Below, piece after piece: positions 2,079 to 62,264 of a stretch of 64,000 bases of DNA. The stretch lies in the IMG/VR virus record IMGVR_UViG_3300042453_005121, positions 32,001 to 96,000 of that record; one strand, given 5' to 3'. The DNA comes from a virus. A model generated the notes under the pieces. That model made no database searches and was not told the DNA's origin. It saw only the letters and a program-made list of their open reading frames with translations. Both the position numbers and the translations under genes were made by a program. Positions within the stretch are counted from its first letter, which is position 1; each line of letters starts with the position of its first letter.

Positions 2079-2366
2079 ATGTTGACATTCAGGGAATTCA
2101 GGGACTCAGAGTCCTCCAAGGAAGAGGAAAAAGCTCAGGAAGTGGTCAGGAAGGGAATGAACCTTCAGGGCGACAGCGATTTCTGGGATGATTTTTTGAG
2201 CCTGTGCGCGAACGCCTCAGGCATGGCCGCCCTTTTGGACGTGTCGGTGGAAAAGGTGACGGCCTTGGGGGGCAGGATAGGAAAAATGAGAAAGGCGATC
2301 GGCGAGAAGGACGGCCACGACGCCAAAAAGAACTCCAAATTGATAAAAACCGGAGACAAGACGTGA
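2079..2366 (+). CDS. Hypothetical protein with capsid-targeting-like N-terminus
   Basis: Starts MLTFREFRDSE. Confidence 0.7.
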   Translation: MLTFREFRDSESSKEEEKAQEVVRKGMNLQGDSDFWDDFLSLCANASGMAALLDVSVEKVTALGGRIGKMRKAIGEKDGHDAKKNSKLIKTGDKT

Positions 2367-2704
2367 AGAAGTTCAGCGAATGGCGTGATTCCATTGACGA
2401 AAACATGAATGCCTCGGCCCTGCGCGGCACCATCGGGGGCGGTGCTGTGAGTGTGGATCCAATTTTGAGAAGCAAATTGCGATCAAAAATACTTGACATA
2501 GTCAAAGAATTTCCTGACAAAAATCCAGCCGAACTTTTTCAGGAAATAATGGCCGTGGTGGGTCAGCTTCTGACAAAGGGGGGAGGGGCGACCACGTCCT
2601 CCAATAAAATGTACAACCAGTTGAATCAACAGTCGGTACAGAATCCCGTTCAGAAGAATCAACAGGCGCAGGCCCAACAGAACCAACAAGTCCAAAACCA
2701 GTGA
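2363..2704 (+). CDS. Hypothetical tagged protein, Gln-rich tail; paralogue of 2712..3026
   Basis: GTG at 2363 (GTGA overlap with upstream stop), MKKFSEWRDSIDE. Confidence 0.7.
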   Translation: MKKFSEWRDSIDENMNASALRGTIGGGAVSVDPILRSKLRSKILDIVKEFPDKNPAELFQEIMAVVGQLLTKGGGATTSSNKMYNQLNQQSVQNPVQKNQQAQAQQNQQVQNQ

Positions 2705-2711
2705 GGAAAAA

Positions 2712-3026
2712 ATGAAATCAATAAGAGAGTGGATGACGGAAAAGGGAATGATCAGCGAGGAAGTCAGGGGAGTTGACCTAGCCAGATTGCTCGGCGGCAC
2801 CAGTTTCCAGATCAATCGCAAATTGGCGGTGAAGCTGAATCCGAAGCTAGATCAGGTTCTGAAGTCAGAGGAGTTCGAAGGCGAGAGTCCCGAGGAAATG
2901 CTTCGTCAGATCATCGCCATCGCCGCAGAGAAACTCGGCGGTGTCGAAGGAACCACCGTGTCGGCAAACAAGTTGGCCGGGGGACTCAACCAGGCAGAGG
3001 ACCCCATCGCTCAGGAAGTCAGATGA
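2712..3026 (+). CDS. Hypothetical tagged protein
   Basis: MKSIREWMTE; GAGG SD. Confidence 0.7.
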   Translation: MKSIREWMTEKGMISEEVRGVDLARLLGGTSFQINRKLAVKLNPKLDQVLKSEEFEGESPEEMLRQIIAIAAEKLGGVEGTTVSANKLAGGLNQAEDPIAQEVR

Positions 3027-3322
3027 AGTCCTTTCTGGTCTGGTTGGAAGGCGAGGAGAGTCCAGCCCTTTCCGAGCCCCAGCACAAGCAGGGCGAAGCG
3101 AACATGGGCTTGGATTCCATCGTCGAAAGGCGAATGAAGCAGATCATAATGGAATTGGAAGGTTCCGGGAAAGGAACTCAGCAGGAGATACTCGCATCGG
3201 TCCAGAAATACCTCAAGGCGAAAGGAGTGCAGGCCGAGAAACCTGCGTCACAACCTCCTCAGGACGACGCTCAAGGTGCCCAACAGGACGGAATGCAGAT
3301 GCAGCCCGCGATGGCCAATTAG
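3023..3322 (+). CDS. Hypothetical tagged protein
   Basis: MKSFLVWLEGEE; ATGA overlap. Confidence 0.7.
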   Translation: MKSFLVWLEGEESPALSEPQHKQGEANMGLDSIVERRMKQIIMELEGSGKGTQQEILASVQKYLKAKGVQAEKPASQPPQDDAQGAQQDGMQMQPAMAN

Positions 3323-3636
3323 ACATATTTCTCCCTGAACAAGTTCATCTTTATCGTCTCGACGTAGTCGTAAAGACACGTGTCTCCTTCGGACTTTATC
3401 TCCCTGAGCCTGTACACTGCCACCTTCTGACTGCCGTCTATCTGGTCATTGGTGAGGTATTCTATGAGTTTCTCGCCGAGTGTCTCGCGGGATATCTCGT
3501 TTCCGTCCACAATGCGCTTGAGTATTAGAGGCGGCTCCTCACCGTTTATCTCTATGACCCTGTCGAGGCATCCGTCCGCAGGGCCTCCGATGAGAAGGGC
3601 GTCCCATTCATATCCGTATCCTTCTTCCTTTTTCAT
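3319..3636 (-). CDS. Hypothetical protein
   Basis: IGGPADG motif typical of small phage proteins; ATGA overlap with upstream gene. Confidence 0.65.
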   Translation of the reverse strand: MKKEEGYGYEWDALLIGGPADGCLDRVIEINGEEPPLILKRIVDGNEISRETLGEKLIEYLTNDQIDGSQKVAVYRLREIKSEGDTCLYDYVETIKMNLFREKYV

Positions 3637-3956
3637 ATCCAGCCCTCTATCGTTGCCCTCTTTATTTCGTCTACAGCGACTCTCCTGCCAAGTGCTTCGC
3701 TTACTGCCTTGACAAATTCCTTCTCTATTTTTTGTTGTTCTTGGATGAGGTAATTGACGCCTTTTTGTTTGGCCTCCAGAAATCTGACCACATCTATCTT
3801 GAAGTCCAGTTTTCTGCCATCCAAGAAAACGGCTTTCTCCACGCCGTCTTTTTTGGGGTCTGGTCCCAAGGGACGCATTTTGACCTCAAATTTGTGCTTG
3901 AAATTACCGTCTCGGCCAATGGGCGGGACATCTGTTTGTATTTCTCTGTTGGTCAT
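3633..3956 (-). CDS. Hypothetical protein
   Basis: Clean ORF translationally coupled to the next gene. Confidence 0.6.
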   Translation of the reverse strand: MTNREIQTDVPPIGRDGNFKHKFEVKMRPLGPDPKKDGVEKAVFLDGRKLDFKIDVVRFLEAKQKGVNYLIQEQQKIEKEFVKAVSEALGRRVAVDEIKRATIEGWI

Positions 3957-3993
3957 AGAATAAAAGAGTTAAATACGCTCGGTATATAGTCTC

Positions 3994-4521
3994 ATGCAAG
4001 GATTATGGCTTGAGACTTCTATTTCCGAACTTTACACCAACTCCCGGAAGGCATTCCCCGGAACGAGCAAAAGGGAGAACTCCACCGACACGGTGAGGGT
4101 GGAGCACCTTGATTGGGTGCCTTTTGAAGGCGTCCGGACTCTTTTCGTGAAGGCGACCGTGAACAACGAAGGAAGGAAAAATGAATCAATAATACTTTTC
4201 AAGGGAGTCAACTACGGAAAGGCCGAAGGCAAGGGCTTCGTGCCACTGATGTCGTCATCGGGACGAAAGGTTTTCGTGGAGAGGCTCTCGGTCTCCGACG
4301 ACGAAGTGCTGGTGAGATGCACATGTGGAGACTTCTTCTGGCGTTTCAACTACTACAACTCCGTGGACAAGTCGCTCTTTGGAAGAAAAAGATCCAAGTA
4401 CGAGGGTCAGAACCTTTGGAAGGCCAACCCCACGGAGAGTTCCGGGATGTGCAAACACCTCATGAAATTGGCTAAAATCCTGCGGGAGGCCGATTTATTA
4501 ATCGCCGGCCGGAATATATAG
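3994..4521 (+). CDS. SWIM zinc-finger protein
   Basis: VRCTCGDF...MCKHL (CxC...CxH); preceded by TATATA-N5-ATG. Confidence 0.75.
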   Translation: MQGLWLETSISELYTNSRKAFPGTSKRENSTDTVRVEHLDWVPFEGVRTLFVKATVNNEGRKNESIILFKGVNYGKAEGKGFVPLMSSSGRKVFVERLSVSDDEVLVRCTCGDFFWRFNYYNSVDKSLFGRKRSKYEGQNLWKANPTESSGMCKHLMKLAKILREADLLIAGRNI

Positions 4522-4527
4522 ATCAGT

Positions 4528-5091: not shown

Positions 5092-5092
5092 T

Positions 5093-5515
5093 ATGGCGGG
5101 CGCCGGTATATTCTTCACCGACGGAAAGAAGGTGCTTCTTCTGAAGCGCGGAGGCGAAGAACGCAACAAGGGAACGTGGGGACTTCCCGGCGGTGGTGTG
5201 GAAGAAGGAGAATCTGCCATTCAGGCGGCTCGCAGGGAGTCCGTGGAGGAATGCGGCCGTGTACAGGGCAGGCGATTCGGCAGCCTCGTGGAAAAGGACG
5301 ACGACCACGAGTGGACGACATTCTTCTTCAGAATCAAAAAGCCATTCAAGTGTAAACTGAGCGACGAACACACCGATTGGAAATGGTTTGATCTAGACGA
5401 TCTTCATAATTTGAATCTGCACCCTAAGTTCAAAAAGAATATGGAGAGGCACCTTTCTTTTCTCAAGAAAAGAAAGTCTTTCAGCGAGTGGCTGGAGATC
5501 CGGGAATCTTGTTGA
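5093..5515 (+). CDS. NUDIX hydrolase
   Basis: Nudix box WGLPGGGVEEGESAIQAARRESVEECG; LSDEH..W.W. Confidence 0.9.
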   Translation: MAGAGIFFTDGKKVLLLKRGGEERNKGTWGLPGGGVEEGESAIQAARRESVEECGRVQGRRFGSLVEKDDDHEWTTFFFRIKKPFKCKLSDEHTDWKWFDLDDLHNLNLHPKFKKNMERHLSFLKKRKSFSEWLEIRESC

Positions 5516-6242: not shown

Positions 6243-6255
6243 GCACGCCCCCTGC

Positions 6256-6705: not shown

Positions 6706-6762
6706 GCCTTGGCCTTTCTTTGGGAATGCATTCTATATTAAACAGAGTATCTAGGTCTCAAT

Positions 6763-9523: not shown

Positions 9524-9751
9524 ATGAAGTCATTTTTGAACTGGGTTAAGGAAGAGAAACTTGAGCTTCCCGTGATCGACGCGCCGGAGGCCGAGAAGAC
9601 CGTTGAAGAGAAGACCAAGAGGACGGGGCTGAGTGCGAATTATCCGCCAGCCTATGTCTCGAGTCAGTATCCTCACAAGTACTTTAATCCGAGCAAGGCG
9701 ACCGCCGACCTTGACATACAGAACATCAAGAAGAAGGACGTGAATTCCTGA
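9524..9751 (+). CDS. Small tagged hypothetical protein
   Basis: MKSFLNWVKEE; GGAG SD. Confidence 0.7.
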   Translation: MKSFLNWVKEEKLELPVIDAPEAEKTVEEKTKRTGLSANYPPAYVSSQYPHKYFNPSKATADLDIQNIKKKDVNS

Positions 9752-10764: not shown

Positions 10765-12051
<1,287 letters not shown>

Positions 12052-18754: not shown

Positions 18755-21598
18755 TCACACCGGCCAGTACTCCTCCACCACCGCCAGATAATCCTTGAAC
18801 GATTCTGACATAGCTTCTTCCGCTCCGGGAATTTGCGCAGCCACTGCCGCCTGCATTTCCTTGTCTATCTTCTTGATTTCCTTCTGGGCGTCTACGATCT
18901 TCTTGAGTGCCTCGGGATCGTGTTCGGCATCGTGATAATGCTTCCTGTATCTTTGTATTATCGCGGCGATCTCTCTTTTCTTCTGAACCCTGTCAAACAA
19001 ATCCCTGTCCAAGCCAGAGCCCACGATGTACTGTATGTTGACGGGATGGTTCGTGTTGATCCTGTATATCCTGCCTTCGCTCTGCTCGGCTGACTCCGGC
19101 GTCCAATCAAAGTCGTTGATGACCATGTGTTGGGCCGCGTTCGGGAAGTCTATGCCCGTTCCGCCCATCTTCATGCTCATGACCAGAACCTTGGCGTCGG
19201 GATCGTTTGTGAATCTGGACTTGACCTTTTCCCTGTCGGCCTTCTTTGTGTCGGACAGGTAAGTGAGAACGTGGAACTTCGGGTCTATCTTTTTGAGTGC
19301 CGCATCGATCTTCTCGGCCAGTTGACGGCCCGCCGCGATGAAATTGCTGAACACGACTGTCTTGCTGGCTGCGGGTGGTTTGTCCTTTCCCTCGTTGACG
19401 ATCCTTATGACCTCTGCGGTCGTCTTGTCGGTTTTTAATTGCGCCACGGCTTCCCTTGCCGCTATGAGACGGGATATGGGAAGACTCGGGTCTTTGTATC
19501 CCGATATCCTGTCGGAGAATATGCCTTGGAACTTGTCTTGATCTATGGAGGCTCCTTGATTTGAAACCGACAAGTTCGGCATGTCCCTGATGTCTTCCTT
19601 GCTTCTTCTCACGTATACGCCCGAAAGGTTGAGCCACTTGTTGAGCCTTTCTGCGGCGCGTATCTCATCCTCGTCGCTGTCGCTCTTCTGCAGCGATCCT
19701 CCGTATCCGCCTCCCACCATGCCTGCAAAGTCCCTCTTGAACTTGGCCTCGCTGACCCTTCCGAGGTGATGGCCTGTCATGGCGAGTTGATTCCTGACGT
19801 CCATGGGCTTGTTGGACGATACGGTGGCGGAGGCTCCCCACTTGGTCGGTATTTTCTCAACGACCTTGGCGATGTTCTGGCTTCTCTTGCTCTTGCTGTG
19901 CTTCACCTTGTGCAGTTCGTCGAAGATCACGATTCCGAATCCGGTGCCGGAAAGCTTGGAGACGACTTGGTCCAGGTTCTTTCCGCTGGAGAAGTTTTCG
20001 TAGTACAAGACCGTCCATTTGCCGGGATTGAGCGGGTCCGTGGAGATTTTGGATTTTTCTTCATCTCCTACGACGTTCGTTATTTCTTCCACCCACTGCT
20101 TCTGGGTGGCTTTGAGTGTGACGACGAGAACGGGCTTGCCGTCCCTCTGCATCCTGAGAGCAGCGGCGCTGACAAGTTGGATCGTCTTGCCCACGCCAGT
20201 TGCGTCACCGAGTATCGCGTGGTCGCGTCCGTAGAGGAAGGCTATGCCCTTCTTCTGCGCGTCGTACAATTCAAATTTGCTTTCAGGAAGTTTGTCCTCG
20301 ATCTTGGACGCGAATTCTTCGTCGTCGTCGTGCTTTCCTTCCCACACGGATTCCTGAAGTCTTCCGTCCTTGAGCTTAGCCCGGACTATGTCTCTCAACT
20401 CGGACACCTCGTATCCGAACCTCTTGAGCAGTCTTCCGAAATTGACGTACTGCTTGTAGTTTCCCGAAACCGTGTAGTAGAAATCCGCCCTGTTCCATTC
20501 GTAGTCCGGGAATGTGTATTGTATTGACTCCTTGATGAATTCCTTCCTTCCCTGATCCAAGGCCCTGTAGTTGACCCTTATCCTCAACTTGTCCCCGCTG
20601 TCGTCGGTGAATTTGATCACGTCGGAGGTGGATCGCGGGGTTTCGGTGGGCGTGGTCTTTTCTCTGGCGAATTTCTCAAGCGATGTCGTGTCGTATCCTT
20701 GGCGGATGAGTTCGTCGGCCACGGACCGGAAATTGGCCGAGTCGGTGTCTATGAGGAACCTTGAAGGCCCCGGCTTATAGGATATTCCCTTGGGAGAAAG
20801 ACCCTTGCTCTTCATTGCTTCAAAAGTGGCCTTGCTTCGTTCGTACGGAACGTTGAACCTGATGGCTATCTTTGTGCCGAAGTCTGTCTTCTCCTCACCT
20901 ATGATTTCTATTTCATCAGCTTTGGAGGGAGTCGCCTGCTGCGAAGCCGGGAGAGATGGTTCGGAACCAGATTCGTACTCCACATCCATGCCTTTTGATT
21001 TGATGACCTGTGCGATTTGGGGGAGTATGCCCTTGTGCACCCTGTAGGTGTGCATGCCGGTCCTGTCCTGGGAGAATTTCTTGAACCGAGGGAGTTTCAT
21101 GTTGCCATAGGCGTCCTGCGAACGTTCGGCACCCTCGGCCTCGAGAGCGGCGTCCACGATCCTGTTTATCTGGATCGTCATGGACCTGTCCACCCCGTGG
21201 GGGATGTAGACCTTCACCTTGCCGTACTCAAGCGGCTGTTTGTCGTACACAACGGCCTTGTCGCCGGACGAACCCGCACGAACGGCCTCCATGTCCTTGG
21301 CAACCAGAGAACTGATCTGCTGGTAATTGGGGACTTGGGTATTGCGGTAGTGGGACAGCATCCGGAGCATGAGGTCGGCAGCCCTTACGGGTACCGATAT
21401 GCTGTCGATGTGTCCGTTGGCGAGAAGGGATTGGTAGGAGGTCCAGTCCCCCTTGTTGAATCCGTAATCGTTGAATTCCTTGGGGACTCCCCTAGAGGCC
21501 ATGTCCCTCATCGCGGCCTGAAGGGCCTTGATGCCCGGCCCGGTGACCGTGGACTCAACCGACTCCCTTATCCCCATCCAATCAGAAAAACCCATCAT
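18755..21598 (-). CDS. SNF2-family (HARP/SMARCAL1-like) helicase/ATPase with tagged N-terminus
   Basis: LYDAQ, GDATGVGKT, DELH, SAT, GGTGIDF, QSEGRIYRI; MMGFSDWMGIRES; TAGATA-N5-ATG. Confidence 0.88.
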   Translation of the reverse strand: MMGFSDWMGIRESVESTVTGPGIKALQAAMRDMASRGVPKEFNDYGFNKGDWTSYQSLLANGHIDSISVPVRAADLMLRMLSHYRNTQVPNYQQISSLVAKDMEAVRAGSSGDKAVVYDKQPLEYGKVKVYIPHGVDRSMTIQINRIVDAALEAEGAERSQDAYGNMKLPRFKKFSQDRTGMHTYRVHKGILPQIAQVIKSKGMDVEYESGSEPSLPASQQATPSKADEIEIIGEEKTDFGTKIAIRFNVPYERSKATFEAMKSKGLSPKGISYKPGPSRFLIDTDSANFRSVADELIRQGYDTTSLEKFAREKTTPTETPRSTSDVIKFTDDSGDKLRIRVNYRALDQGRKEFIKESIQYTFPDYEWNRADFYYTVSGNYKQYVNFGRLLKRFGYEVSELRDIVRAKLKDGRLQESVWEGKHDDDEEFASKIEDKLPESKFELYDAQKKGIAFLYGRDHAILGDATGVGKTIQLVSAAALRMQRDGKPVLVVTLKATQKQWVEEITNVVGDEEKSKISTDPLNPGKWTVLYYENFSSGKNLDQVVSKLSGTGFGIVIFDELHKVKHSKSKRSQNIAKVVEKIPTKWGASATVSSNKPMDVRNQLAMTGHHLGRVSEAKFKRDFAGMVGGGYGGSLQKSDSDEDEIRAAERLNKWLNLSGVYVRRSKEDIRDMPNLSVSNQGASIDQDKFQGIFSDRISGYKDPSLPISRLIAAREAVAQLKTDKTTAEVIRIVNEGKDKPPAASKTVVFSNFIAAGRQLAEKIDAALKKIDPKFHVLTYLSDTKKADREKVKSRFTNDPDAKVLVMSMKMGGTGIDFPNAAQHMVINDFDWTPESAEQSEGRIYRINTNHPVNIQYIVGSGLDRDLFDRVQKKREIAAIIQRYRKHYHDAEHDPEALKKIVDAQKEIKKIDKEMQAAVAAQIPGAEEAMSESFKDYLAVVEEYWPV

Positions 21599-21666: not shown

Positions 21667-22923
21667 ATGATGAATTTCAGAAAATGGTTGAACGAGGCCG
21701 CGATGTTGATGAGTCCCGCCGAGGCCGTGCGCGAACTTGGACTGGCACCCGAGGGAACTCTGGAGAGGGAGACGCTGAATGCAGTCTACAGGAAGATCGC
21801 TCTGGAGACGCACCCGGACAGGAATCCCGACCCCGAGGCGGCGGCAAGGTTCAAAAGGGCGGCAGAAGCCTACGAGGTGCTTCTTCCTTTCGTGGGAGGA
21901 CCCGTGCCGGGCGAGGGTTCCGTGCCTCCGGAAAGAAAATACGAATACGACCCAGAAAATGACGCCAGAAACGAATTCTACAAACAATGGGCAAGGCATT
22001 TGGCTCCAACTGGACAATACTCCATGGGAGAGTTTGACGAATGGATCAGGCAGATCGTTGAAAACCAATTCTTTCAGGTGAAGGTAAGACAGACGGTCGG
22101 CTACGTTACGTGGGGCATGAAGATCGGAAAGGACGAGCACACGATGCCCCTCGGTAGCGTCAACAGGACCTTCAGGGTGACAGGATACGCAAAAAAAGGC
22201 ACGGGCGTCCAGAAATCGCCGATGGACTCAATCAAGGAACTCTTCGCCCCATACATGTCAAGGCTTCCGGAGTTCATAGTGGACATGAAGATAAAAAACA
22301 GCGCTAATTGGCGGGAGGCGTGGATAACCATGGAACTCCCGAGCGGCAAATACCAATCGGTCAGTTTCTTCCCGGTGGAGAAGAAGGAGAAGAAGGCTCC
22401 AGGCGTGGGTATGAAGAAGGACGAAGTTTCGGAACACTTGCGATCTTCGGGCTTGACGTTCGCGGGGAGTTACACGGCCGGTGACAACTACGGCGTGTCC
22501 GAATCGCCAATGGGTTACTTCGTTCAACTCGGGCCGAAGGTCATAAGGATAATAAGGAGATACAGGGGAGACTACCACGGGAAGAAGACGATAGAGACCG
22601 TGAACGTTGCGTCCGAGCACTACGGAAACATGACAAAGGAACTTCTTGACAAGTACGTTGCGACCGTACGGAGGAGGTCGCAGCAAAACGAGGCGTTCGT
22701 TCACAGTAGCGATATGAACCCTAACTTCGCCATGGCCGTATATTCAATAATGCACAACAAGGCCTCGGCTGCAGACTGGAATCTTATTGACAGCATCCCG
22801 AAGGACAAAGCCCTAGGAATGATCAGAGGGATTCTGGAGGACAACGGCGTGGAGGGCGAAGAACTGGATCGTGAGATGGAGTGGTGGGGAAAACAAATAG
22901 CCTCAACCGGGAAGTGGAACTGA
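21667..22923 (+). CDS. J-domain (DnaJ-like) protein with tagged N-terminus
   Basis: YRKIALETHPDRNPDPEAAARFKRAAEAYEVL; MMNFRKWLNEA; TATATA-N5-ATG. Confidence 0.85.
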   Translation: MMNFRKWLNEAAMLMSPAEAVRELGLAPEGTLERETLNAVYRKIALETHPDRNPDPEAAARFKRAAEAYEVLLPFVGGPVPGEGSVPPERKYEYDPENDARNEFYKQWARHLAPTGQYSMGEFDEWIRQIVENQFFQVKVRQTVGYVTWGMKIGKDEHTMPLGSVNRTFRVTGYAKKGTGVQKSPMDSIKELFAPYMSRLPEFIVDMKIKNSANWREAWITMELPSGKYQSVSFFPVEKKEKKAPGVGMKKDEVSEHLRSSGLTFAGSYTAGDNYGVSESPMGYFVQLGPKVIRIIRRYRGDYHGKKTIETVNVASEHYGNMTKELLDKYVATVRRRSQQNEAFVHSSDMNPNFAMAVYSIMHNKASAADWNLIDSIPKDKALGMIRGILEDNGVEGEELDREMEWWGKQIASTGKWN

Positions 22924-22939: not shown

Positions 22940-23446
22940 TCAACCCACCTTCCCGGGTTGGTTGTACGTTATTTCGTACTCGCGCTTGGCGATCCTGTAG
23001 TATTTGCCGTCTTCCTCGCGAACGAGGTAATCTCCCGGCTTCAAAACCATGCTTTCTCCCCAAGGCGCCAAAAAATTAACCACGGCATTGCCCGTGTAAG
23101 CGGCGACGTTCCTCGGACTCTGCTCCGGGTGCACAGGGTCTCCCATCTGGCCAACGTACATCTTCTGGAACTTGGCGGGCTTGATCGCATATTTCTCTCT
23201 GCTCGGGCCGCTAATGATGATATCGTTCTGTTCGGCCACGTTCTGCGTCTCCTTACCGTCGCTGGTCATTGTGGTCACGGTCATTCGTTCGGGAGCGACC
23301 GCATAACTCATTGCCGGCATGTCGGTACTGTATTGGACGAAGTTGTAAACTAGTTTTTTCTTTGTGGTGGGCAGGAAATTAAGACCGGCGGCGATCTGGT
23401 TGATGTCAATCTGGTTCTCAAGCATCCATTCGTTGAATTTTTTCAT
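22940..23446 (-). CDS. PGDYG-like protein with tagged N-terminus
   Basis: MKKFNEWMLEN; APWGE..PGDYLV, YRIAKREYEITY. Confidence 0.65.
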   Translation of the reverse strand: MKKFNEWMLENQIDINQIAAGLNFLPTTKKKLVYNFVQYSTDMPAMSYAVAPERMTVTTMTSDGKETQNVAEQNDIIISGPSREKYAIKPAKFQKMYVGQMGDPVHPEQSPRNVAAYTGNAVVNFLAPWGESMVLKPGDYLVREEDGKYYRIAKREYEITYNQPGKVG

Positions 23447-26747: not shown

Positions 26748-27155
26748 GTGGAAATGAAGCATCTTGAAGAAGTGAACATGAGTTACGCAGGTCACTTGGG
26801 GCTCGCCATGTTGAATTCATTGCGGCTGCTTGTTTCCTCCGTGGCTCTTTTTATCCATGCATTATTTCCATTTTTATTCACTCACACGGCCTCCGGTCTT
26901 ATGGAGGATGTTCGGAACTCATTTCCCAAGGTTGGTAATGACAGGATACTGGTGAGATTCAACACCAAGTGGAAAGAAGACCCGGAGAAGAGGCAATGGA
27001 GGGTTTTGGTAAACGGCGTGGAGACTTTGGCTAATGATGTCTTTATAAAAAATGGCTCCGAGACAGTGGAGGAAGAAATATCTGGGGAGAAGAAGTTTCA
27101 TTTCTTGTGTTTTGGCAAAGTCACATGGCAAGATGGTTCGGCAACTATAACATGA
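26748..27155 (+). CDS. DUF6356-like membrane protein fused to a small C-terminal domain
   Basis: HLEEVNMSY..HL...IHALFPFLF..TAS. Confidence 0.65.
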   Translation: MEMKHLEEVNMSYAGHLGLAMLNSLRLLVSSVALFIHALFPFLFTHTASGLMEDVRNSFPKVGNDRILVRFNTKWKEDPEKRQWRVLVNGVETLANDVFIKNGSETVEEEISGEKKFHFLCFGKVTWQDGSATIT

Positions 27156-28126
27156 ACAAAATCAACTTCAGAAAATGGTTTGAGTCCTCCGGCCTTGACG
27201 CCCTCTTGTCGGTGATTAGCGACAAGCACCCGGGATTGAAGATATATGCCTATGAGGGCAGGGAAAAGATTGAACTCATGGAGATAAAGGTCCCCGAGGA
27301 ATCTAGGGGCAAGGGAGTCGGCACCGAGGTCATCAAGATGATTCAGGACTACGCCCGTTCGGTCGGAAAGCCAATAGTCCTGAGGCCCGAGGCTGATAGG
27401 GGGAGGAAGGGCGACCTAGAGAGGTTCTACAGGGGCTTGGGATTTGTTCACAACAGGGGGAAGAACACGGACTTCGTTCTTTCTTCTCCCACGAGCAGGA
27501 CCATGTACTGGAGGCCTAGCGTGGACGAGTCTGTTCGCGTGACGGACACGTGGCCCATTAACAAATTGTTTTATGACATGGACAATCCCAAGGAAAGAAG
27601 GCAGTACGAGAAGGATTTGCAGGACCGTTTAGAAAGACTTAAAAAGCCCGAAAAGAAGATCGTTTCAGAAAAGTTGATGAGGGAGCCGTACACCATAACG
27701 TGCTGGCGTGGGTTTGACATGAGATCATTTGAGAGGGATGTATCGCTAGATTCCGGGGCACTGCGAATCAAGGGCGACAGGGCGATGGAGGGAATGCTTT
27801 GGTTCACTCACTCGCTCCAGCCGCGTCATGAATTTGACCCGAAGGAATATGCGATCGGACATGCGCGAGGAGACGGCTATTTGCTCACGTATCCATTGGT
27901 GTGCGAGAGAAGATACAAACTGATAACGTACGACGACGGTTCTACGTCAACGGATGGCCCAGATGAGCGTGTGAATCAGACGGAATTGAGCGACAAGGGA
28001 TTTTTCTGGGGTTCTCTTTACGACCTTCCTCCCGGGTGGTTCTTCACATGGCAGGTTCAAAAGCACATTGGATTCAAGGGATTATTGAAAATTGACATGG
28101 GCATGCTTGAGAGGATAGAGGAATGA
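27152..28126 (+). CDS. Tagged GNAT acetyltransferase plus ADP-ribosyltransferase-like C-terminal domain
   Basis: NFRKWFES; VPEESRGKGVGT, LERFYRGLGF; WRG...LWFT...YA...GYLL. Confidence 0.7.
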   Translation: MNKINFRKWFESSGLDALLSVISDKHPGLKIYAYEGREKIELMEIKVPEESRGKGVGTEVIKMIQDYARSVGKPIVLRPEADRGRKGDLERFYRGLGFVHNRGKNTDFVLSSPTSRTMYWRPSVDESVRVTDTWPINKLFYDMDNPKERRQYEKDLQDRLERLKKPEKKIVSEKLMREPYTITCWRGFDMRSFERDVSLDSGALRIKGDRAMEGMLWFTHSLQPRHEFDPKEYAIGHARGDGYLLTYPLVCERRYKLITYDDGSTSTDGPDERVNQTELSDKGFFWGSLYDLPPGWFFTWQVQKHIGFKGLLKIDMGMLERIEE

Positions 28127-29004
28127 TGGGATTTTCGGAGTGGTTTTTGAGCGAGGCTCGGACTCCAAAGGTCATCATGTACCACGGAACGGCGTTCAGG
28201 AACTTGAGGCCGATAATGTCGCACGGACTTCTTCCCAATCCAAAGGGAAGGGCGTGGCAGGAAGATCCCGACTCGTCGTTCCACAGCGCCAGCAGGGCTT
28301 CTCTAGATGGCATATATCTCACCCGAAATCTGATGACTGCTCTTTCTGCTGCCAGCAACGGGGCCAATAGGAAATACATCAAAGAGGGCGATCTTTTGGT
28401 TGCGGTGGAGATGCAGCCGAAGACCGCGTTTGCCGACGAGGATGACCTCAACTTCATGGCTACCGTATCCAACATGGAGATGAGGGTGGCCGATTTGTAT
28501 TATTCATTGGAGAAGGGCGGTCCGGAAGGTCATTTGGAGGCTGCCAAGAACGAGTACAAGGATAGGTTCTTCTCCAGGGTGGGTTCGGAGGTTTCCTTGA
28601 ATCCCCTCGTCAAGGAACGTCTTGATTCAATGGTGGACTCTGTATTTGAGGCCGCGCTGAGGAGGCAGGCCGCCTATGTGGGCTACTACATGAAAAACTA
28701 TTTCAAAGACATCGGTATTCCCGACAAGAACGAAGCCGAAAGAAATTTCATGATGGCGAGGGAGGCATTGACGAGGACGCTCAAGTCGCTCGCAAATCCA
28801 TTCAACTACAAAAACGAGCCGTTCAATCTCACGGCAAGGGTGGAGGAGCCCATAGGATTCAGGGGATCAAACAGGATAGTTTGCATTTTGCACGTGCCGT
28901 TTGATTACAAGGAAAAGCCGAGGCTCGTGTACGGAACGGTCCCAGAAGATTTGATCAAGCAATGGGGGGAACGAAAGGGCGAGTGGAAGGGCGCTACCAC
29001 CTGA
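28123..29004 (+). CDS. Tagged ADP-ribosyltransferase-fold (PARP/Tpt1-like) protein
   Basis: MMGFSEWFLSEA; MYHGT...IMSHGLLP...GIYLT. Confidence 0.7.
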   Translation: MMGFSEWFLSEARTPKVIMYHGTAFRNLRPIMSHGLLPNPKGRAWQEDPDSSFHSASRASLDGIYLTRNLMTALSAASNGANRKYIKEGDLLVAVEMQPKTAFADEDDLNFMATVSNMEMRVADLYYSLEKGGPEGHLEAAKNEYKDRFFSRVGSEVSLNPLVKERLDSMVDSVFEAALRRQAAYVGYYMKNYFKDIGIPDKNEAERNFMMAREALTRTLKSLANPFNYKNEPFNLTARVEEPIGFRGSNRIVCILHVPFDYKEKPRLVYGTVPEDLIKQWGERKGEWKGATT

Positions 29005-29972: not shown

Positions 29973-31133
29973 TCATCCAGTCTTGAACTTTTCCTTTCTC
30001 AAGTCATCCATCAGGTCGCGATCGGACATGATTTCCTGCGAGTCCTTGAGCGACGCTGTTATGTAGTGCACAGTTCCCCCGTACCCTCCTTTTTCCGAGT
30101 ACTTCTTTGCGTCGCCGAAATCTGCATCGGGGCGTCTCAGTCTCACCAGTTCCTTGAGTTTATAAAAGTTGTCCTCCAAGTCGTCGGGATATGTGCTGCT
30201 GATCGTGACGGATGATCTGGAGAATCTCACGACGCCCCTAGATGTTTTCTTTGGTTCGGGTTTGAATTCGTTGGGCTTTGCATCCAAGCTCTTGTCTTCT
30301 TCTATGTCGTCGAATGCCTCTCCGAAGAGTCTTTCCATTGCTCTCTTGTCGGCGAAGTGGAATCCAGGCTTGTTGTGGGCCTTCAATGCGGCGATTACGT
30401 CGTGGAGTCTGGATTCGGAAAGGCCGTATTTCTTCGCATTCTTTTCCATCCATTCCGAAAGGTTTTGATTATCAGAAGGGTTGGCCGAATGTCCTTGGCC
30501 GAACTTCTTGAGTGAAGATATCTTGTCCACCATTCTCTGTATGTTCGGCGGAAGTGGAACGGATCTACCGAGCGGGAATCTTCTCGCCGGGTGATACTTT
30601 CCTGAGGTGAACGCGTCGTGCTTGTCCTTTATGACTAGGTCTTGCTGGTCTTGTGGAGTGGTGGGGTGGAACTGAGCACTTGTGATGTCTATGTAATGTC
30701 CCTCGGCCTCCACCCACCAGTGTTGTTGGGGGCTCTTCATGTTGTGGCCCTTTGGTGGGTTGGCGTCGTTGAGTCCGATCGCATACCCGGCGTGGTATCC
30801 CGGCTCTGGGGTTCCGTACCATCCGGCAACCTTTCTTGCCTTGAACCCTTTTTCCCTCAGGAATTTTGCTAGGTCGTCCGCCGCGTTAACGCACGTGAAG
30901 GATAGCGGATGGTGCTTGAATGGAACCACTCCCAAACTCTTGTCGTAATCCGTTCCGAGTTCGTCCTCAACGTGTTTTGGATTGTTTGGATCAAAGTGCA
31001 TGTTCTTTGGGCGCGTGATGTAATAGCACTTTTGGGCTCCGGGCTTTTTGACGAGATATTCTTTTACTGCGGCTTCAAGACGTTCCTTCATGCTCGGGGA
31101 AGGGTCGGCGAGCCACTCCATGAATGTCTTCAT
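29973..31133 (-). CDS. Tagged transglutaminase/papain-like (Cys-His-Asp) protein
   Basis: MKTFMEWL; TCVNAADDL, QHWWVE, YIDITSAQF. Confidence 0.7.
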   Translation of the reverse strand: MKTFMEWLADPSPSMKERLEAAVKEYLVKKPGAQKCYYITRPKNMHFDPNNPKHVEDELGTDYDKSLGVVPFKHHPLSFTCVNAADDLAKFLREKGFKARKVAGWYGTPEPGYHAGYAIGLNDANPPKGHNMKSPQQHWWVEAEGHYIDITSAQFHPTTPQDQQDLVIKDKHDAFTSGKYHPARRFPLGRSVPLPPNIQRMVDKISSLKKFGQGHSANPSDNQNLSEWMEKNAKKYGLSESRLHDVIAALKAHNKPGFHFADKRAMERLFGEAFDDIEEDKSLDAKPNEFKPEPKKTSRGVVRFSRSSVTISSTYPDDLEDNFYKLKELVRLRRPDADFGDAKKYSEKGGYGGTVHYITASLKDSQEIMSDRDLMDDLRKEKFKTG

Positions 31134-33641: not shown

Positions 33642-34043
33642 ATGACGTTGGTTGTACCGGACGAGGGCGAGAGAAGGCTTCTTAGTTATATAGTTAACAA
33701 GTCGTCGCCGACCAATCTCGTGCTTCATCTTTATGTGAACAACGTGAGTCTCGGAGCCGAGACTTTCACGGGCGCGAGTTTCACTGAAGCGAGTGCGTCT
33801 GGGTATGCGGCAGTGACCCTCACTGGTTCCAACTGGACCGTTGGTACGACCACAGGAGTTTCTTCTGCGACGTACAACAGCAGCATCACATTCACATTCA
33901 GCGTCGGCCAGAGCGTTTACGGCTATTACGTGACCGACACCTCGGGAAATATCCTGTGGGCCGAGGAGTTTCCTGGTGCCCCTTTCGCCCTTCCTGGGGG
34001 CGGCGGGGAGATATCGGTGACTCCGCGACTCCAATTGAACTGA
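33642..34043 (+). CDS. Virion structural (tail-associated) protein
   Basis: LHLY, FTEAS.SGYA, TFTF..YGYYV, WAEEF pattern; AGGAG SD. Confidence 0.7.
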   Translation: MTLVVPDEGERRLLSYIVNKSSPTNLVLHLYVNNVSLGAETFTGASFTEASASGYAAVTLTGSNWTVGTTTGVSSATYNSSITFTFSVGQSVYGYYVTDTSGNILWAEEFPGAPFALPGGGGEISVTPRLQLN

Positions 34044-34639
34044 TGGGCGGCTTCGGACGTTGGTTGGAAGCCAGAGTCAGGGGTTCTGTGGCCGGTGAGG
34101 CGATGAAGAGAACTCTAGATTTCAAGGTCCAAGCAGAGTGGATTGAGTGGAAGGTGGAACCCAAGGGATGGATCACGGACAAGGGGACCAAGGATTCTTT
34201 TGATCTACAGGCCGCATTCTACAATCCAAAGGTCCCAAAGCCAGCCTTCTTTTATATTCGGGCCCACGCCATCCTTGATAAGCCAGACGCGGAGTACGAC
34301 TCCGTATCGGGGTCCGACGAAATGAAAATCAAGGCGTCGCTCTTCATTTTCAACGGCAAGACTGGATTGGGTGGAGTAAAAACTACCGGCGGTCCTGGGA
34401 GTATGCGCGCACTGTTGGACAGGGATGGACACATCAGACTCAGCGAGAGGGACGACGCGATAAACTTTCCCGGAGCACTATCGGAGTTTGACGGGCCTTC
34501 GTTGAAAACTCCGCTTCAACTCGCGGAGTGGATAAACAAAGTGATAGATCACACGGACATCGGAGGCGACGATGACGGAGAAGAAGAGCCCGAACCGCCG
34601 CTGGTCCCGGACGCCGGAGGAAGATTGATCGGAGTTTGA
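34043..34639 (+). CDS. Tagged hypothetical protein
   Basis: MGGFGRWLEAR; TGATG overlap. Confidence 0.65.
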   Translation: MGGFGRWLEARVRGSVAGEAMKRTLDFKVQAEWIEWKVEPKGWITDKGTKDSFDLQAAFYNPKVPKPAFFYIRAHAILDKPDAEYDSVSGSDEMKIKASLFIFNGKTGLGGVKTTGGPGSMRALLDRDGHIRLSERDDAINFPGALSEFDGPSLKTPLQLAEWINKVIDHTDIGGDDDGEEEPEPPLVPDAGGRLIGV

Positions 34640-52088: not shown

Positions 52089-52457
52089 TCAATTTTCGTC
52101 TTCAGGCTCTTCTTCAGAAGGCCCTATGTCATTGACCGGGGCCTCGCCAGAAATAGATTCCATTTGCTGCTGGACGGCTTTCAGGACGTCCTTCAATTCG
52201 CCTTTCTCTTCTATGGCCTTCATTATTGCAACTCCACATTTCTGAAGGACGGTCAAGTTTGACCGTTCGCTGTCAGGCCAATGAGTGTGGATCGTGCGCC
52301 TGATCTGGTTGACTATGGTCTCGGCATTGCTTACCAGATGACGAGGACCCATATCCTCGGCATTGTCATTGAGGTCTTGGAGGGCACTCAGTATGTCTGA
52401 GACCCTCTGGGCAAAGAATGCTTTGCTTTCGTCAAGTATGAATTCCTTGAATTGCAT
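52089..52457 (-). CDS. Tagged hypothetical protein
   Basis: MQFKEFILDES; TAGATA-N5-ATG. Confidence 0.7.
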   Translation of the reverse strand: MQFKEFILDESKAFFAQRVSDILSALQDLNDNAEDMGPRHLVSNAETIVNQIRRTIHTHWPDSERSNLTVLQKCGVAIMKAIEEKGELKDVLKAVQQQMESISGEAPVNDIGPSEEEPEDEN

Positions 52458-56296: not shown

Positions 56297-56367
56297 TTTT
56301 TGTTTTCCTTATTGTAATAAACGACGAGGTATCTAAGATTGTTAATCAAAATTTTGCATCCGATTGA

Positions 56368-60310: not shown

Positions 60311-60391
60311 GGATTTTAGCATGATCTTACCAAGACACGCCCAAGCAGTCCATAGATGTTCGTATCAATATTTTAGAATTGAACAATAAAT

Positions 60392-61150
60392 ATGAATATC
60401 ATGAAACTAGTCATAAATTCAAATGTGAATTACGAAAAACCACTTCGCAAATTGTTTTTGTCCTTGCGTGGAGCGGGATTCAGGGATTACAAGAACATAA
60501 TCGTTGTGAGGGGCCAATCAGAGTCTGACGAGGAGCCCAAAAAGGTCAAAATTTCCAAGGTTGTGAAATTGGGCATTCGTGATGAACTGACGTTAATCAA
60601 CATGCGTTTGAATAACTTTGACTACACTGGGTATCATGCCCTGAATGTTTATAAAGAACACCCCCTCGTGAGTTCAGACTGGTATATGTACATTTTGGAC
60701 ACCGTTACGGTGAACAGCCTATTCGTGTCGTTCATCAATTCGGCATGCCCTGATCCGGATGAGTTGATGATCACCATGCGTCCTCATTCAAACATATGTG
60801 CATTTGGCAGTGAGGTGATAAAGAACTACGGAAACAATTTCGGCACGCCGTTGACAAAGGACGAGGCAATAAGACTTGAGTTTGATTCGCCGATAGAAAA
60901 AAACGTAGCGAGCATATCAAGGTTCGGAAGAATAACTCAGATGAATACGAGATATTTGGTAGGAGAGGCCGACATATATGGAACGGGACATCCAAGAAAA
61001 AATCTTTATTACCCAGACTTCGGATTGAGCAAATGGATATTCTGGGGGAGGACTGGTGATATCTTGGGAGACGTCCAAGAGAACAAAGTGTGGACGAGCG
61101 ACGAGATCGCCAGATTCAAAAAAGAAAACAAGCCCGAATCATTTTTTTAA
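60392..61150 (+). CDS. Hypothetical protein, possibly glycosyltransferase-related
   Basis: NNFDYTG, WYMYILDT; AT-rich region near other GT genes. Confidence 0.55.
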   Translation: MNIMKLVINSNVNYEKPLRKLFLSLRGAGFRDYKNIIVVRGQSESDEEPKKVKISKVVKLGIRDELTLINMRLNNFDYTGYHALNVYKEHPLVSSDWYMYILDTVTVNSLFVSFINSACPDPDELMITMRPHSNICAFGSEVIKNYGNNFGTPLTKDEAIRLEFDSPIEKNVASISRFGRITQMNTRYLVGEADIYGTGHPRKNLYYPDFGLSKWIFWGRTGDILGDVQENKVWTSDEIARFKKENKPESFF

Positions 61151-61453
61151 CGATTTGCTCAAAGCGGTCCAGACGTCAGAACTTTTTATCTTTTGAACCG
61201 TCGTTCCGCCTGGTTGCGGCGAACTGGGATCGCCTGGGGCCGATGGCGCTCCTATGGAAGGTCCTCCCATGGGCGGTCCTCCCAAGCCCATAGGCGGACC
61301 ACCGCCCCCTAAGCCTGGCGGAGGGCCGCTGCCAAATCCGGGGATGCTCGGCCCTCCCGGAGGTGGGCCTGGTGGGGGTGGTGGCTTTCCTCCACTTGGT
61401 GGAGGAGCCGGTGGAGTCGCTTCTAATATAAGGAATTGGTGAAAAGTAAGCAC
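61139..61453 (-). CDS. Tagged Pro/Gly-rich protein
   Basis: MLTFHQFLILEA then PPPPPGPPPGG; GTG with TATATA 4 nt upstream. Confidence 0.65.
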   Translation of the reverse strand: MLTFHQFLILEATPPAPPPSGGKPPPPPGPPPGGPSIPGFGSGPPPGLGGGGPPMGLGGPPMGGPSIGAPSAPGDPSSPQPGGTTVQKIKSSDVWTALSKSLKK

Positions 61454-61506
61454 GAATTATATAGCCCAGATAATAGATATATTTGTATGCAACAAGGAGT
61501 GTTTAA

Positions 61507-61677
61507 ATGGACGCAAAGGATTTGATGACCTTTATTGTTACCCTTTTCGTTCCGCCTCTCGGGGTGGCTCTGAAATCGGGATTCGGAACTCATTTTTGGG
61601 TGAATCTGGCTCTTACGGTGTTCGGTTTTTACATTGCGGGGATGGTTCACGGCGTTTACGTCGTGCTCAAGGACTAA
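61507..61677 (+). CDS. YqaE/Pmp3-family membrane proteolipid (56 aa, not in ORF track)
   Basis: LFVPPLGVAL..G....FWVNLALT..G...G..HG.YVV; AAGGAG SD. Confidence 0.85.
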   Translation: MDAKDLMTFIVTLFVPPLGVALKSGFGTHFWVNLALTVFGFYIAGMVHGVYVVLKD

Positions 61678-62264
61678 AAATTAATTTGCGGAATCCTTGA
61701 TATCACCAAATTCCAGTTCGTCGAAACCCATTTCTTGAATGTTTCTTCGGCCTTTTTGGGGCCGACCTCATCGGTTTTGCCTTTGGTCTGAAACTCTATC
61801 TCGTGGGTTGTTTCGTGTATTATGGTGCTAGCTATTTCCAGAACGGCTTCTTTTGTGTCGCCAAACTCCCTGACTATCTTTTGTACGTTCACGTGAATCA
61901 CGTCACTAGGGGCGAGCTGTCTTTCATCTATATCTGGAATGTATTGTTTTATAACTGAATTTGGTATTCTTTGTAAGTTTTGCTGTTGTGCAGCGGAATG
62001 GCCGAATTTGAACCTTATTTTATTAGAAGCGGCAGGACCTATGATTTTTTTGTTTTCTGAAGAGTTGTATAGCCCATAAACTCCGGAATATAGGGGTGCA
62101 ATGGTACTTATGTTGTTCAAAAGCTTCTGTCCTGTTGATTTGGAGTACAACTGGACCAGTTTTATTGCATACTTTGCCTTGTCGTACAACTGGTCTATTC
62201 TGCTTTCCACATTTTCTGTTCCGAGGGTGGAATTCTCCCCGAGCCATGATTTGAAATGTCCCAT
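61674..62264 (-). CDS. Tagged HExxH metallopeptidase-like protein
   Basis: MGHFKSWLGEN; IIHETTHE...DE..P. Confidence 0.65.
   Translation of the reverse strand: MGHFKSWLGENSTLGTENVESRIDQLYDKAKYAIKLVQLYSKSTGQKLLNNISTIAPLYSGVYGLYNSSENKKIIGPAASNKIRFKFGHSAAQQQNLQRIPNSVIKQYIPDIDERQLAPSDVIHVNVQKIVREFGDTKEAVLEIASTIIHETTHEIEFQTKGKTDEVGPKKAEETFKKWVSTNWNLVISRIPQINF

Follow-up and report, generated by a model that had tools for sequence, protein, structure and literature searches.

About thirty otherwise unrelated proteins encoded on a 150.8-kb contig, or ∼28% of a phage genome of ∼540 kb, carry a common peptide tag of 10 to 12 residues. Most probably, this tag is a variant, specific to this clade, of phage T4's capsid targeting sequence (CTS), and its carriers would be docked on the prohead scaffold, cut by the prohead protease and delivered with the DNA. 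Because the tag closely matches the T4 head-loading signal, the phage probably delivers into its host, along with its DNA, a far larger ready-made set of proteins than T4 does.

A common tag at the starts of unrelated genes

The window that we analyzed is a stretch of 64,000 nucleotides within this contig, and its tagged genes are listed in the table below. Each of the 19 tagged N-termini reported for the window in a first-pass annotation translates exactly from its assigned position. Seven are read on the plus strand from the listed base and nine on the minus strand, and the other three deviate slightly, with GTG starts at 2363 and 61453 and, at 27152, a start at the ATG of MNKINFRKWFE. According to independent gene calls, all 19 tags head plausible genes, whose starts are backed by a Shine-Dalgarno site, a TATATA element just upstream or orthologues. 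Over the whole contig, we counted ∼31 tagged starts, corresponding to roughly 16% of genes, with 12 of them lying beyond the window.

The general consensus of the tag is M-K-[ST]-F-x-E-W-L-x(1-3)-E-[SAGN]. For the 23 tags whose first hydrophobic residue occupies position 4, it reads M1 K2 [ST]3 F4 [KR]5 E6 W7 L8 .. E10-12, with F4 in 19, W7 in 16 and Leu or Met as residue 8 in 15. The motif begins at residues 3 to 6, the Glu follows 5 to 9 residues past the first aromatic residue, and the tag as a whole is acidic and amphipathic. The positions richest in information are F (4.3 bits), W (5.5 bits) and L (2.8 bits). A six-frame search with a strict pattern, M-x(1,2)-F-x-x-W, gave matches at 43 of 15,378 start codons, ∼24 of these matches being at or beside real gene starts. 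When we scored the contig with a position matrix derived from these tags at a threshold of ≥8 bits, we observed a clear concentration at gene starts, with 29 of 187 scoring compared to 1 of 711 internal Met codons. Past the first 16 residues, no similarity among the tagged proteins was detected by BLAST. All of them are hydrophilic, and none has membrane segments. As the first-pass annotation had claimed, gene calls showed the sheath, tube, Nrd and gp46/47 proteins to be free of the tag.

Tagged genes of the window and one gene with a C-terminal copy of the motif (a slash marks the candidate cut)
Position (nt)	Strand	Length (aa)	Tag	Remarks
2079..2366	+	95	MLTFREFRDSES	First of four tandem small tagged genes; G001 orthologue with weak tag
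2363..2704	+	113	(M)KKFSEWRDSIDE/N	GTG start
2712..3026	+	104	MKSIREWMTE	
3023..3322	+	99	MKSFLVWLE/G	
5093..5515	+	140	..KSFSEWLEIRESC (nt 5480-5512)	NUDIX-like; motif at C-terminus; PWM 19.9 bits
7099..9426	-	775	MSSFKEWLIIE/S	N-terminal part Cys-rich, zinc-ribbon-like
9524..9751	+	75	MKSFLNWVKEE	G001 orthologue also tagged
10765..12051	+	428	MLSYKEYKLLNE/S	Poly(Asp/Glu) tract of ∼70 residues
15723..16181	-	152	MRFHDWMKLNE/G	
18755..21598	-	947	MMGFSDWMGIRE/S	SNF2/DEAD-type helicase core, residues 441-848
21667..22923	+	418	MMNFRKWLNE/A	J-domain, residues 33-72; TATATA 5 nt upstream
22940..23446	-	168	MKKFNEWMLE/N	Weak PGDYG-domain match
27152..28126	+	324	MNKINFRKWFE/S	GNAT-like domain, residues 32-99, below Pfam cutoffs
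28123..29004	+	293	MMGFSEWFLSE/A	Clade-only family; invariant E11, YHGT motif
29973..31133	-	386	MKTFMEWLADPS	Without canonical cut motif
31130..32629	-	499	MKTFMEWLFHE/N	Tag-like MGGFGHWF internally, residue ∼328
34043..34639	+	198	MGGFGRWLE/A	
52089..52457	-	122 (from internal ATG)	MQFKEFILDE/S	G001 orthologue starts MRFKEFLLIE
61139..61453	-	104	(M)LTFHQFLILE/A	GTG start; Pro-rich; TATATA 4 nt upstream
61674..62264	-	196	MGHFKSWLGE/N	Weak VLTF3-like zinc-finger match; HETTH motif; TATATA upstream

Some of the enzymatic identities proposed earlier for the tagged proteins held up. The SNF2 ATPase was recovered by Pfam (SNF2-rel_dom, 2.9e-10; Helicase_C, 1.3e-13), as was the J-domain protein (DnaJ, 8.2e-10). 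The GNAT assignment has weak backing, its domain scoring below Pfam cutoffs and its fused relatives carrying precomputed GNAT Pfam hits. We could not confirm the transglutaminase-like protein, nor the ART fold, for which the AlphaFold2 (AF2) model was poor and gave no fold match. For the 293-residue protein at 28123..29004, the AF2 model reached a pLDDT of 62.7 and matched no fold. The supposed sigma-like protein yielded just the weak VLTF3-like match, and the supposed metallopeptidase came down to one protein with an HExxH motif and nothing more.

The codons of the tag vary synonymously (TTC or TTT, GAA or GAG, four Leu codons), leaving the amino acids unchanged, and the upstream contexts differ among tagged genes, including Shine-Dalgarno sites, coupled operons and GTG starts; the signal thus lies in the peptide. 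Both observations speak against the tag being conserved for an RNA or translation-initiation need, such as that of leaderless late mRNAs, or as a DNA-level recombination cassette. The idea draws on several tagged genes that begin 5 to 8 nt past TATATA and may be leaderless. This element, a late-promoter-like motif common to tagged genes and the head operon, precedes 10 of 30 tagged genes and is not found ahead of the nrd or gp46/47 genes, but untagged genes have the same context too (17 of 158), and we regard this explanation as extremely improbable. We give equally little credence to the tag being a RiPP-like recognition leader for a modifying enzyme, since no radical-SAM gene (PF04055) was found on the contig, a complete relative yielded one subthreshold match, and the tag lacks a Ser/Cys/Thr-rich target stretch. 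The tag also is not serine-rich and is unrelated in sequence to a radical-SAM-paired serine-rich leader.

Cut motifs and head genes

In the T4 genome, we verified the leader of the internal proteins IPII and IPIII as M K T Y Q E F I A E/A. For IPIII, residues 4 and 7 govern targeting and residues 8 and 10 govern processing (review PMC9026906). The best-conserved positions of the tag, namely, F4, W7, L8 and Glu10-12, coincide with these targeting and processing positions. Like the T4 CTS, the tag sits as an N-terminal leader on unrelated proteins; at positions 4 and 7 it typically carries hydrophobic or aromatic residues and at position 8 an aliphatic one, which would form a gp21-type site together with the Glu, and a small residue comes behind.

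Most tags had been said to continue with Glu and then S, A, N or G, and one of these four residues indeed follows the Glu in 19 of 28. A hydrophobic-x-E-[ASGN] site within residues 7 to 18 was present in 16 of 29 tagged versus 5 of 149 untagged proteins (p = 4e-11), and protease-type sites directly after the motif occurred at ∼17 times the background rate. About one-third of the tags lack the canonical cut motif. The contig also encodes a gp21-type protease (Peptidase_S77, 2.8e-27) and a Gp23 capsid protein (1.1e-84), both within a portal-protease-scaffold-major capsid protein (MCP) operon. The Gp23 model match begins at residue 56 of the capsid protein and therefore implies a propeptide; four [LI]-x-E-[ASGN] sites lie within the first 48 residues of the MCP. 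Per 100 residues, the scaffold has 2.3 copies of this motif, the portal 1.8, the protease 1.7 and the MCP 1.05, compared to 0.28 genome-wide. The scaffold, which has no Pfam or PHROG match, thus has 8 times the mean density, and the same statistic applied to T4 ranked gp22 first, with high values for gp68, gp23 and gp21. A scaffold-like protein dense in the cut motif and a gp21-family protease thus accompany the tag, as in the T4 system.

The first-pass proposal of a T4-type leader removed by the prohead protease passed every sequence-level test applied here, and from these we infer scaffold binding, packaging into virions, cleavage and injection of the tagged proteins. TATATA, enriched ahead of tagged genes and also preceding the head operon, would be compatible with joint late expression of the carriers and the head proteins. 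In such a mechanism, the first part of the tag, a short amphipathic helix with Phe 4, Trp 7 and Leu or Met 8, would dock the new protein on the scaffold core as the prohead assembles late in infection. Directly after the helix, the second part would be an [L/I/M/F/W]-x-Glu site followed by [Ser/Ala/Gly/Asn], which the gp21-type (Peptidase S77) prohead protease would cut after shell closure, freeing the mature protein within the head for later exit with the DNA. An N-terminal signal for stability or degradation that times the removal of tagged proteins appears very unlikely to us: N-terminal degrons exist in bacteria, but the acidic, amphipathic tag is unlike the known N-end-rule or ClpX N-motifs, and a degron would leave unexplained the match to T4, the small residue after the Glu and the link with the cut motifs of head genes.

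Conservation, portability and other positions of the motif

We observed the same enrichment in a complete independent relative of 532,729 bp (G001), where the tag matrix scored ≥8 bits at 30 of 881 gene starts versus 2 of 2,205 internal Met codons and ≥10 bits at 19 gene starts versus no internal Met. The cut-site statistic was likewise reproduced there, with 8 of 30 tagged versus 34 of 813 untagged proteins (p = 5e-5). The tagged proteins themselves are mostly lineage specific, homologues in G001 being found for 6 of 29 tagged versus 59 of 158 untagged proteins. Orthologues retain a tag despite differing linkers. That of the 15723..16181 gene in G001 has the tag and 45 extra residues ahead of the conserved domain, and a 60%-identical orthologue of the SNF2 protein begins MIDFQTWKL. 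For the 10765..12051 protein, BLAST found no G001 homologue, and its N-terminus is resembled by that of a G001 protein starting MLSYKQWKMLNE/S. In four relatives, the tag, the GNAT domain and the 293-residue protein form one fusion, in which the second F..W helix is lost and L-x-E-A at the joint is kept. Such natural swaps and fusions suggest that the tag is portable between unrelated proteins.

The motif is not confined to N-termini. It ends the NUDIX-like protein and its G001 orthologue (..SFSSWL), is C-terminal in three small G001 proteins and forms a conserved internal segment of the portal. These copies would also fit a general docking motif for another phage or host hub (a chaperone, polymerase, clamp or compartment shell), which would gather accessory proteins with no capsid loading, and both the tags without a cut motif and the large number of tagged genes agree with this. 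We nevertheless judge such a hub to be rather unlikely, since the spacing from the initiator Met is constant in 29 of the ∼31 copies, a protease-type site comes right after the motif far above background, the correspondence with the T4 CTS holds at the level of individual positions, and no candidate alternative hub was identified. The C-terminal and internal copies and the one-third of tags without the canonical cut motif count against the CTS reading as well. So do the share of tagged genes, far over the handful of T4, the incomplete specificity of the loose CTS pattern, and the lack of a tag of the present form in phages that share the head type while their capsid protein is more distant (Flavobacterium phage immuto, LR756508.1).

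Implications and comparison with known loading systems

Should the tag act as it does in T4, a plain motif would reveal which proteins a huge uncultured phage injects during the first seconds of infection, a class otherwise found only through virion proteomics of cultured phages. It would point to candidates for host takeover and counter-defense, including the SNF2 ATPase, J-domain protein, acetyltransferase, NUDIX enzyme and numerous proteins that have no known relatives, and would help to explain the use of some extra genes in huge phages; that these form a pre-made anti-defense toolkit is speculation. It would also mean that the T4 loading rule (targeting by residues 4 and 7, cutting by 8 and 10) applies in a distant lineage that uses another residue pair, and it would aid both the understanding of cargo recognition by the scaffold and the engineering of protein delivery by phage heads. 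More tentatively, one movable peptide code might serve a clade of ∼500-kb freshwater phages to load a pre-made proteome of thirty or more proteins per genome (among them the SNF2-type ATPase, J-domain cochaperone, acetyltransferase, NUDIX hydrolase and an acidic DNA-mimic-like protein) for delivery with the DNA. The code would then work N-terminally, C-terminally and inside cleavable fusions, and these phages might renew their first-minute takeover and anti-defense tools mainly by gaining, losing and fusing genes at the tag.

Among the papers that we searched, none describes such an expanded tag set in T4-like jumbo phages. The T4 CTS shares with the tag an N-terminal leader of ∼10 residues, identical M1, K2, T3 and E6, aromatic residues at 4 and 7 and an aliphatic one at 8; in the tag, Glu and a small residue then follow at 10 to 12. 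In both systems, the carriers are otherwise unrelated and fast evolving, some of them in tandem arrays of small genes, and the lineage-specific tagged proteins resemble the variable internal proteins of T-even phages. Both also have a gp21-type protease, a gp23-type capsid and a scaffold rich in cut motifs. T4 gp24 (MAKINELLRE) and Alt (MELITELFDE) have leaders related to the CTS that are removed by gp21. CTS-like starts are not fully specific, and T4 lysozyme and gp61.1, which are not known head proteins, fit the loose pattern. The systems differ in the aromatic pair (Tyr/Phe in T4, Phe/Trp here), in the spacer from residue 8 to the Glu, which varies here by 0 to 4 residues, and in the number of carriers (∼31 in 28% of the genome versus a handful). 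Further differences are the large enzymes among the putative cargo here (SNF2, 947 residues; J-domain, 418 residues) and the C-terminal copies.

In phiKZ-like giant phages (phiKZ, 201phi2-1, SPN3US), head and ejection propeptides are cut by gp21 homologues after S/A/G-x-Glu. There, too, a protease related to gp21 cuts many of the internal head proteins after a Glu, and the propeptides are thought to direct proteins to the prohead. The common leader of SPN3US gp53 and gp54, MANFVKSKLARESVE, resembles MMGFSDWMGIRESVES of the SNF2 protein described here. In contrast to the tag, these propeptides mostly span 80 to 250 residues with no single short common tag, and the phages belong to another capsid lineage, without a recognized gp22 scaffold. 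The cargo-loading peptides of encapsulins illustrate that a short terminal peptide is enough for unrelated enzymes to be loaded into a shell of the HK97 fold. Unlike the tag, they are usually C-terminal and bind the shell protein itself, without removal by a protease, and the system involves neither DNA nor injection.

A shared N-terminal peptide on otherwise unrelated proteins

The window derives from a single viral contig of 150,762 bp, on which our own gene calls placed 187 genes. CheckV estimates this contig to be 28% complete, which implies a genome near 540 kb in size. The major capsid protein it encodes shares 78.6% identity with that of LR756511.1, a 595-kb uncultured phage, and 82 to 98% identity with the capsid proteins of numerous IMG/VR contigs (lengths up to 533 kb), but only 29 to 42% with those of cultured T4-like phages. 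We thus place the contig in a clade of huge, uncultured phages whose heads are of the T4 type.

The first-pass annotation had listed 19 N-termini carrying a common tag, which it took to mark a packaged and injected set of effectors. All 19 are exact translations at their coordinates, two of them with a GTG start, and tag starts outside the window bring the total on the contig to about 31. The strict pattern M-x(1,2)-F-x-x-W matched 43 of 15,378 six-frame start codons, with about 24 of these at or adjoining real gene starts. When the proteome was scanned with a position matrix built from the tags (thresholds of at least 8 and at least 10 bits), scores of at least 8 bits occurred at 29 of the 187 gene starts on the contig versus 1 of 711 internal methionines. 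The same matrix applied to a complete relative (IMGVR_UViG_3300049215_000771, 532,729 bp) gave 30 of 881 gene starts versus 2 of 2,205 internal methionines at this threshold, and 19 gene starts versus no internal methionine at 10 bits or more. A DNA pattern for M-x-x-F-x-E-W matched 24 times in five related large contigs (reversed control, 0), and a looser pattern matched 16 times in LR756511.1 (control, 2). The sharing of the tag is thereby confirmed, far beyond chance. Past their first 16 residues, the tagged proteins showed no mutual similarity in BLAST comparisons.

The codons of the tag vary synonymously, and the tagged genes are preceded by mixed contexts, namely Shine-Dalgarno sites, coupled overlaps or a TATATA element 5 to 8 nt before the ATG. 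The conserved object is therefore the peptide, and the same two observations make it unlikely that the tag acts as an RNA-level or leaderless-translation signal. A leader for a modifying enzyme was also considered and rejected, since the contig has no radical-SAM gene and the tag is unrelated to the serine-rich leader sequence. That the tag serves as a degron seems very improbable.

Two phages with the same type of head, Flavobacterium phage immuto and LR756508.1, were examined for the F/W form of the tag; it is missing from the first and not clearly seen in the second, so this form is clade-specific. Scanning IMG/VR for MKTFxEWL returned 87 matches, 74 of them at the head of open reading frames of at least 50 residues, and half of the loci came from the clade of our contig. 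An S77 protease was found in 9 of 22 other large IMG/VR contigs with an MKTFxEWL start, most of the remainder being fragments. Two recurrent families from unrelated viral contigs in IMG/VR begin with MKTFxEWLKAxGxD.. (455-548 aa) and MKTFFEWFPPG.. (404-424 aa); in both, the N-terminus seems to belong to the family and does not resemble a portable tag.

Head genes, candidate cleavage sites and TATATA elements

We consider it probable that the tag is a capsid-loading signal resembling the capsid targeting sequence (CTS) of phage T4 internal proteins. Tagged genes cluster in the structural half of the contig, and a tandem array of four small ones recalls the T4 ipIII-ipII pair. The head operon encodes a portal, a protease of the Peptidase_S77 (gp21) family (E = 2.8e-27), an acidic, helical protein of 304 aa and a capsid protein of the Gp23 family (E = 1.1e-84). 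The Pfam alignment of the last begins at residue 56, implying a propeptide. A second, vertex-type gp23-like gene with a tag was sought on the contig, which yielded a single Gp23 match only.

The motif [LI]-x-E-[ASGN] occurs at 0.28 per 100 residues across all proteins, whereas the 304-aa protein reaches 2.3, the portal 1.8, the protease 1.7 and the capsid protein 1.05; four of the capsid protein sites fall within residues 1-48, the first being F-L-N-E-A at 7-11. With T4 as a positive control, the same statistic ranked the gp22 scaffold first (3.3 versus 0.32 overall), and gp68, gp23 and gp21 were also high. These densities support the 304-aa protein as a putative scaffold and a T4-like [L/I]-x-Glu specificity of the protease; related giant-phage proteases also cut after Glu. 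A hydrophobic-x-E-[ASGN] site within residues 7-18 was present in 16 of 29 tagged versus 5 of 149 untagged proteins on the contig (p = 4e-11), and in 8 of 30 versus 34 of 813 in the complete relative (p = 5e-5). When tags were picked by the F..W core alone, our count was 14 of 20. The predicted cut falls directly behind the Glu, as in ..WLNE, ..FLSE and ..GIRE. About one third of the tags have no canonical cut site.

The palindrome TATATA is found in 38 copies on the contig, most of them no more than 60 nt ahead of a start codon. The distance is often just 5 to 8 nt, so leaderless mRNAs may occur. Of the 30 tagged genes, 10 have TATATA in front of them, as do 17 of the 158 others. TATATA also lies 57 nt upstream of the portal operon, and does not stand before the nrd or gp46/47 genes. 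The T4 late promoter is TATAAATA, which TATATA resembles, and a late class common to head genes and tagged genes is plausible.

Coordinates of the features discussed (genome coordinates refer to the whole contig, L001)
Feature	Position	Strand	Remarks
Four small tagged genes in tandem	window 2079-3322		
Operon of portal, Peptidase_S77, 304-aa protein and Gp23-family capsid protein	genome 5789-10693, just upstream of window (304-aa protein, genome 8314-9228)		
Portal	genome 5789-7585 (L001:5789-7585)		upstream of window
TATATA sites	window 1065, 3983, 4515, 9457, 9490, 10727, 16187, 21656, 26301, 33612, 34642, 51769, 61458, 62271		others elsewhere
TATATA between two divergent genes	window 33612, 51769; genome 11956, 35983		
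NUDIX-like protein with C-terminal tag motif	window 5093-5515, tag 5480-5512	+	..KSFSEWLEIRESC / ..KKRKSFSEWLEIRESC, 19.9 bits
428-aa acidic tagged protein	window 10765-12051	+	
GNAT-like gene and 293-aa protein gene	window 27152-29004	+	overlapping
Protein with internal MGGFGHWF..	window 31130-32629	-	residue ~328
Protein with internal MGEFDEWIRQIVEN	window 21667-22923	+	residue ~120
Gene run of repetitive basic peptides	genome 101759-103729 (window 69759-71729)		past window end
T4 gene 61.1	NC_000866 18966-19130 (L116)		54 aa
Two MKTF.. families, IMG/VR loci	L130, L154, L157, L161, L174, L175, L195, L197; L134, L144, L147, L165, L188, L198, L206		

Tagged proteins, fusions and displaced copies of the motif

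All tagged proteins are hydrophilic and without membrane segments, and their pI did not differ from that of other proteins. Homologues in the complete relative exist for just 6 of 29, versus 59 of 158 untagged proteins; the tagged proteins thus form a fast-changing periphery, resembling in this the internal proteins of T-even phages. Most received no Pfam assignment, and a PHROGs search with ten tagged or head proteins returned no family. Among the activities proposed for the cargo in the first-pass annotation, the SNF2/DEAD helicase core of the SNF2 ATPase and the J-domain were borne out, and the GNAT assignment stood as a weakly supported domain match; the transglutaminase, metallopeptidase and sigma assignments were not confirmed. 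Weak matches to PGDYG and to a VLTF3-like zinc finger were also seen. The ART fold suggested for the 293-aa protein was neither confirmed nor excluded by its homologues, their alignment and an AlphaFold2 model (mean pLDDT 62.7), for which a Foldseek search against the PDB gave nothing below E = 0.1. In one tagged protein of 428 aa (pI 4.4), about 70 Asp/Glu residues follow one another without a break; a role as DNA mimic or as scaffold-like filler is conceivable. Past the window end lies a run of genes for highly repetitive basic peptides, with the repeats K-V-T-K-A-H and I-K-A/D-I-R-A and a poly-Lys run in a neighbouring open reading frame.

Orthologues in relatives retain the tag even though the linker between tag and domain differs, in one case by 45 extra residues; a SNF2 orthologue of 60% identity begins MIDFQTWKL... 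For a weakly tagged DUF5856 protein, homologues exist in other phages, some of them with a structural annotation; the alignment with these begins only at residue 27. Homologues of the 293-aa protein, 17 in number, all come from the clade; in them E11 is invariant and F4 and A12 are nearly so. In four relatives (P0002, P0006, P0007 and P0011), a single gene of 408-425 aa joins the tagged GNAT domain to the 293-aa protein, the second F..W helix being lost and L/I-x-E-A kept at the joint; on the contig the two are separate, overlapping genes that both carry a tag. This pattern would be expected if one helix per polypeptide sufficed for loading and the joint were then cut, but the evidence is weak, since the domain itself accounts for conservation behind the Glu, and the fused genes depend on the gene calls of the sources. 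Tag-like stretches inside two other tagged proteins may be remnants of earlier gene fusions.

The motif also occurs away from the N-terminus. A NUDIX-like protein carries it at its C-terminus, as does the orthologue of this protein in the complete relative (..ESFSSWL at the end). The relative also has three small proteins with the motif within their last 15-25 residues. Residues ~113-122 of the portal form a similar internal core, L-F-x-E-[W/Y]-[M/L]-x-L-P, kept in some 50 related contigs; this may mean that the tag imitates a contact between portal and scaffold, or the likeness may be a coincidence. Together, the displaced copies suggest a helix that could dock away from the N-terminus, and they keep alive the main alternative, docking to a hub other than the capsid, to which we assign a rather low probability.

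Comparison with the capsid targeting sequence of T4

The 23 tags in which position 4 holds the first hydrophobic residue give the consensus M1 K2 [S/T]3 F4 [K/R]5 E6 W7 L8 [I/L]9 x E11 [E/A/S]12; the aromatic pair is shifted one residue earlier in 7 further tags and two later in 2. Glu follows the first aromatic residue by 5-9 positions, with Ser, Ala, Asn or Gly next in 19 of 28. The spacing of F, +3 W, +4 L and +7 hydrophobic would put these side chains on a single helix face, and in the one AlphaFold model made, residues 4-12 are predicted, at low confidence, as a helix preceding the first strand of the fold.

Read directly from the T4 genome, IPIII and IPII begin MKTYQEFIAE followed by Ala, gp24 begins MAKINELLRE followed by Ser, and Alt begins MELITELFDE; gp23 has F-L-T-E-A at residues 62-66. 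On the T4 genome, our matrix gave the internal proteins 4.8 bits (rank 9 of 1,580), not the top rank, since Phe and Trp dominate the matrix. A loose, general CTS pattern was too unspecific, with 24 matches in T4 including lysozyme; gp61.1 fits it as well. T4 gp61.1 begins MKTFKEFIKED (F4, F7, I8, E10) and fits the CTS rule as well as the T4 internal proteins do. Neither lysozyme nor gp61.1 is known to us as a head protein, and we are aware of no such report for gp61.1.

The CTS concept is already established for T4. The first 10 residues of IPIII are enough for loading, with residues 4 and 7 mainly governing targeting and residues 8 and 10 processing (PMC9026906, a review of L. Black's work). 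T4 heads have been loaded via the CTS with beta-galactosidase, GFP and nucleases (PMC9026906; cf. PMC3012670, PMC5694885), and the CTS was suggested to let T4-like phages load varied proteins (PMC9026906). The four best-conserved tag positions, F4, W7, L8 and Glu, correspond to these targeting and processing positions of IPIII, and M1, K2, T3 and E6 are common to both peptides. No other single observation argues as strongly for reading the tag as a capsid-targeting peptide as this positional match to the mutational data from T4.

Our literature search found no paper on a short leader shared across dozens of huge-phage proteins. In giant phiKZ-like phages, many head proteins are processed, mostly via long propeptides. 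Compared with the T4 CTS, the predicted mechanism of the tag is the same and the residue pair differs; its scale would be much larger, with big enzymes among the putative cargo and signs of C-terminal and polyprotein use in the clade.
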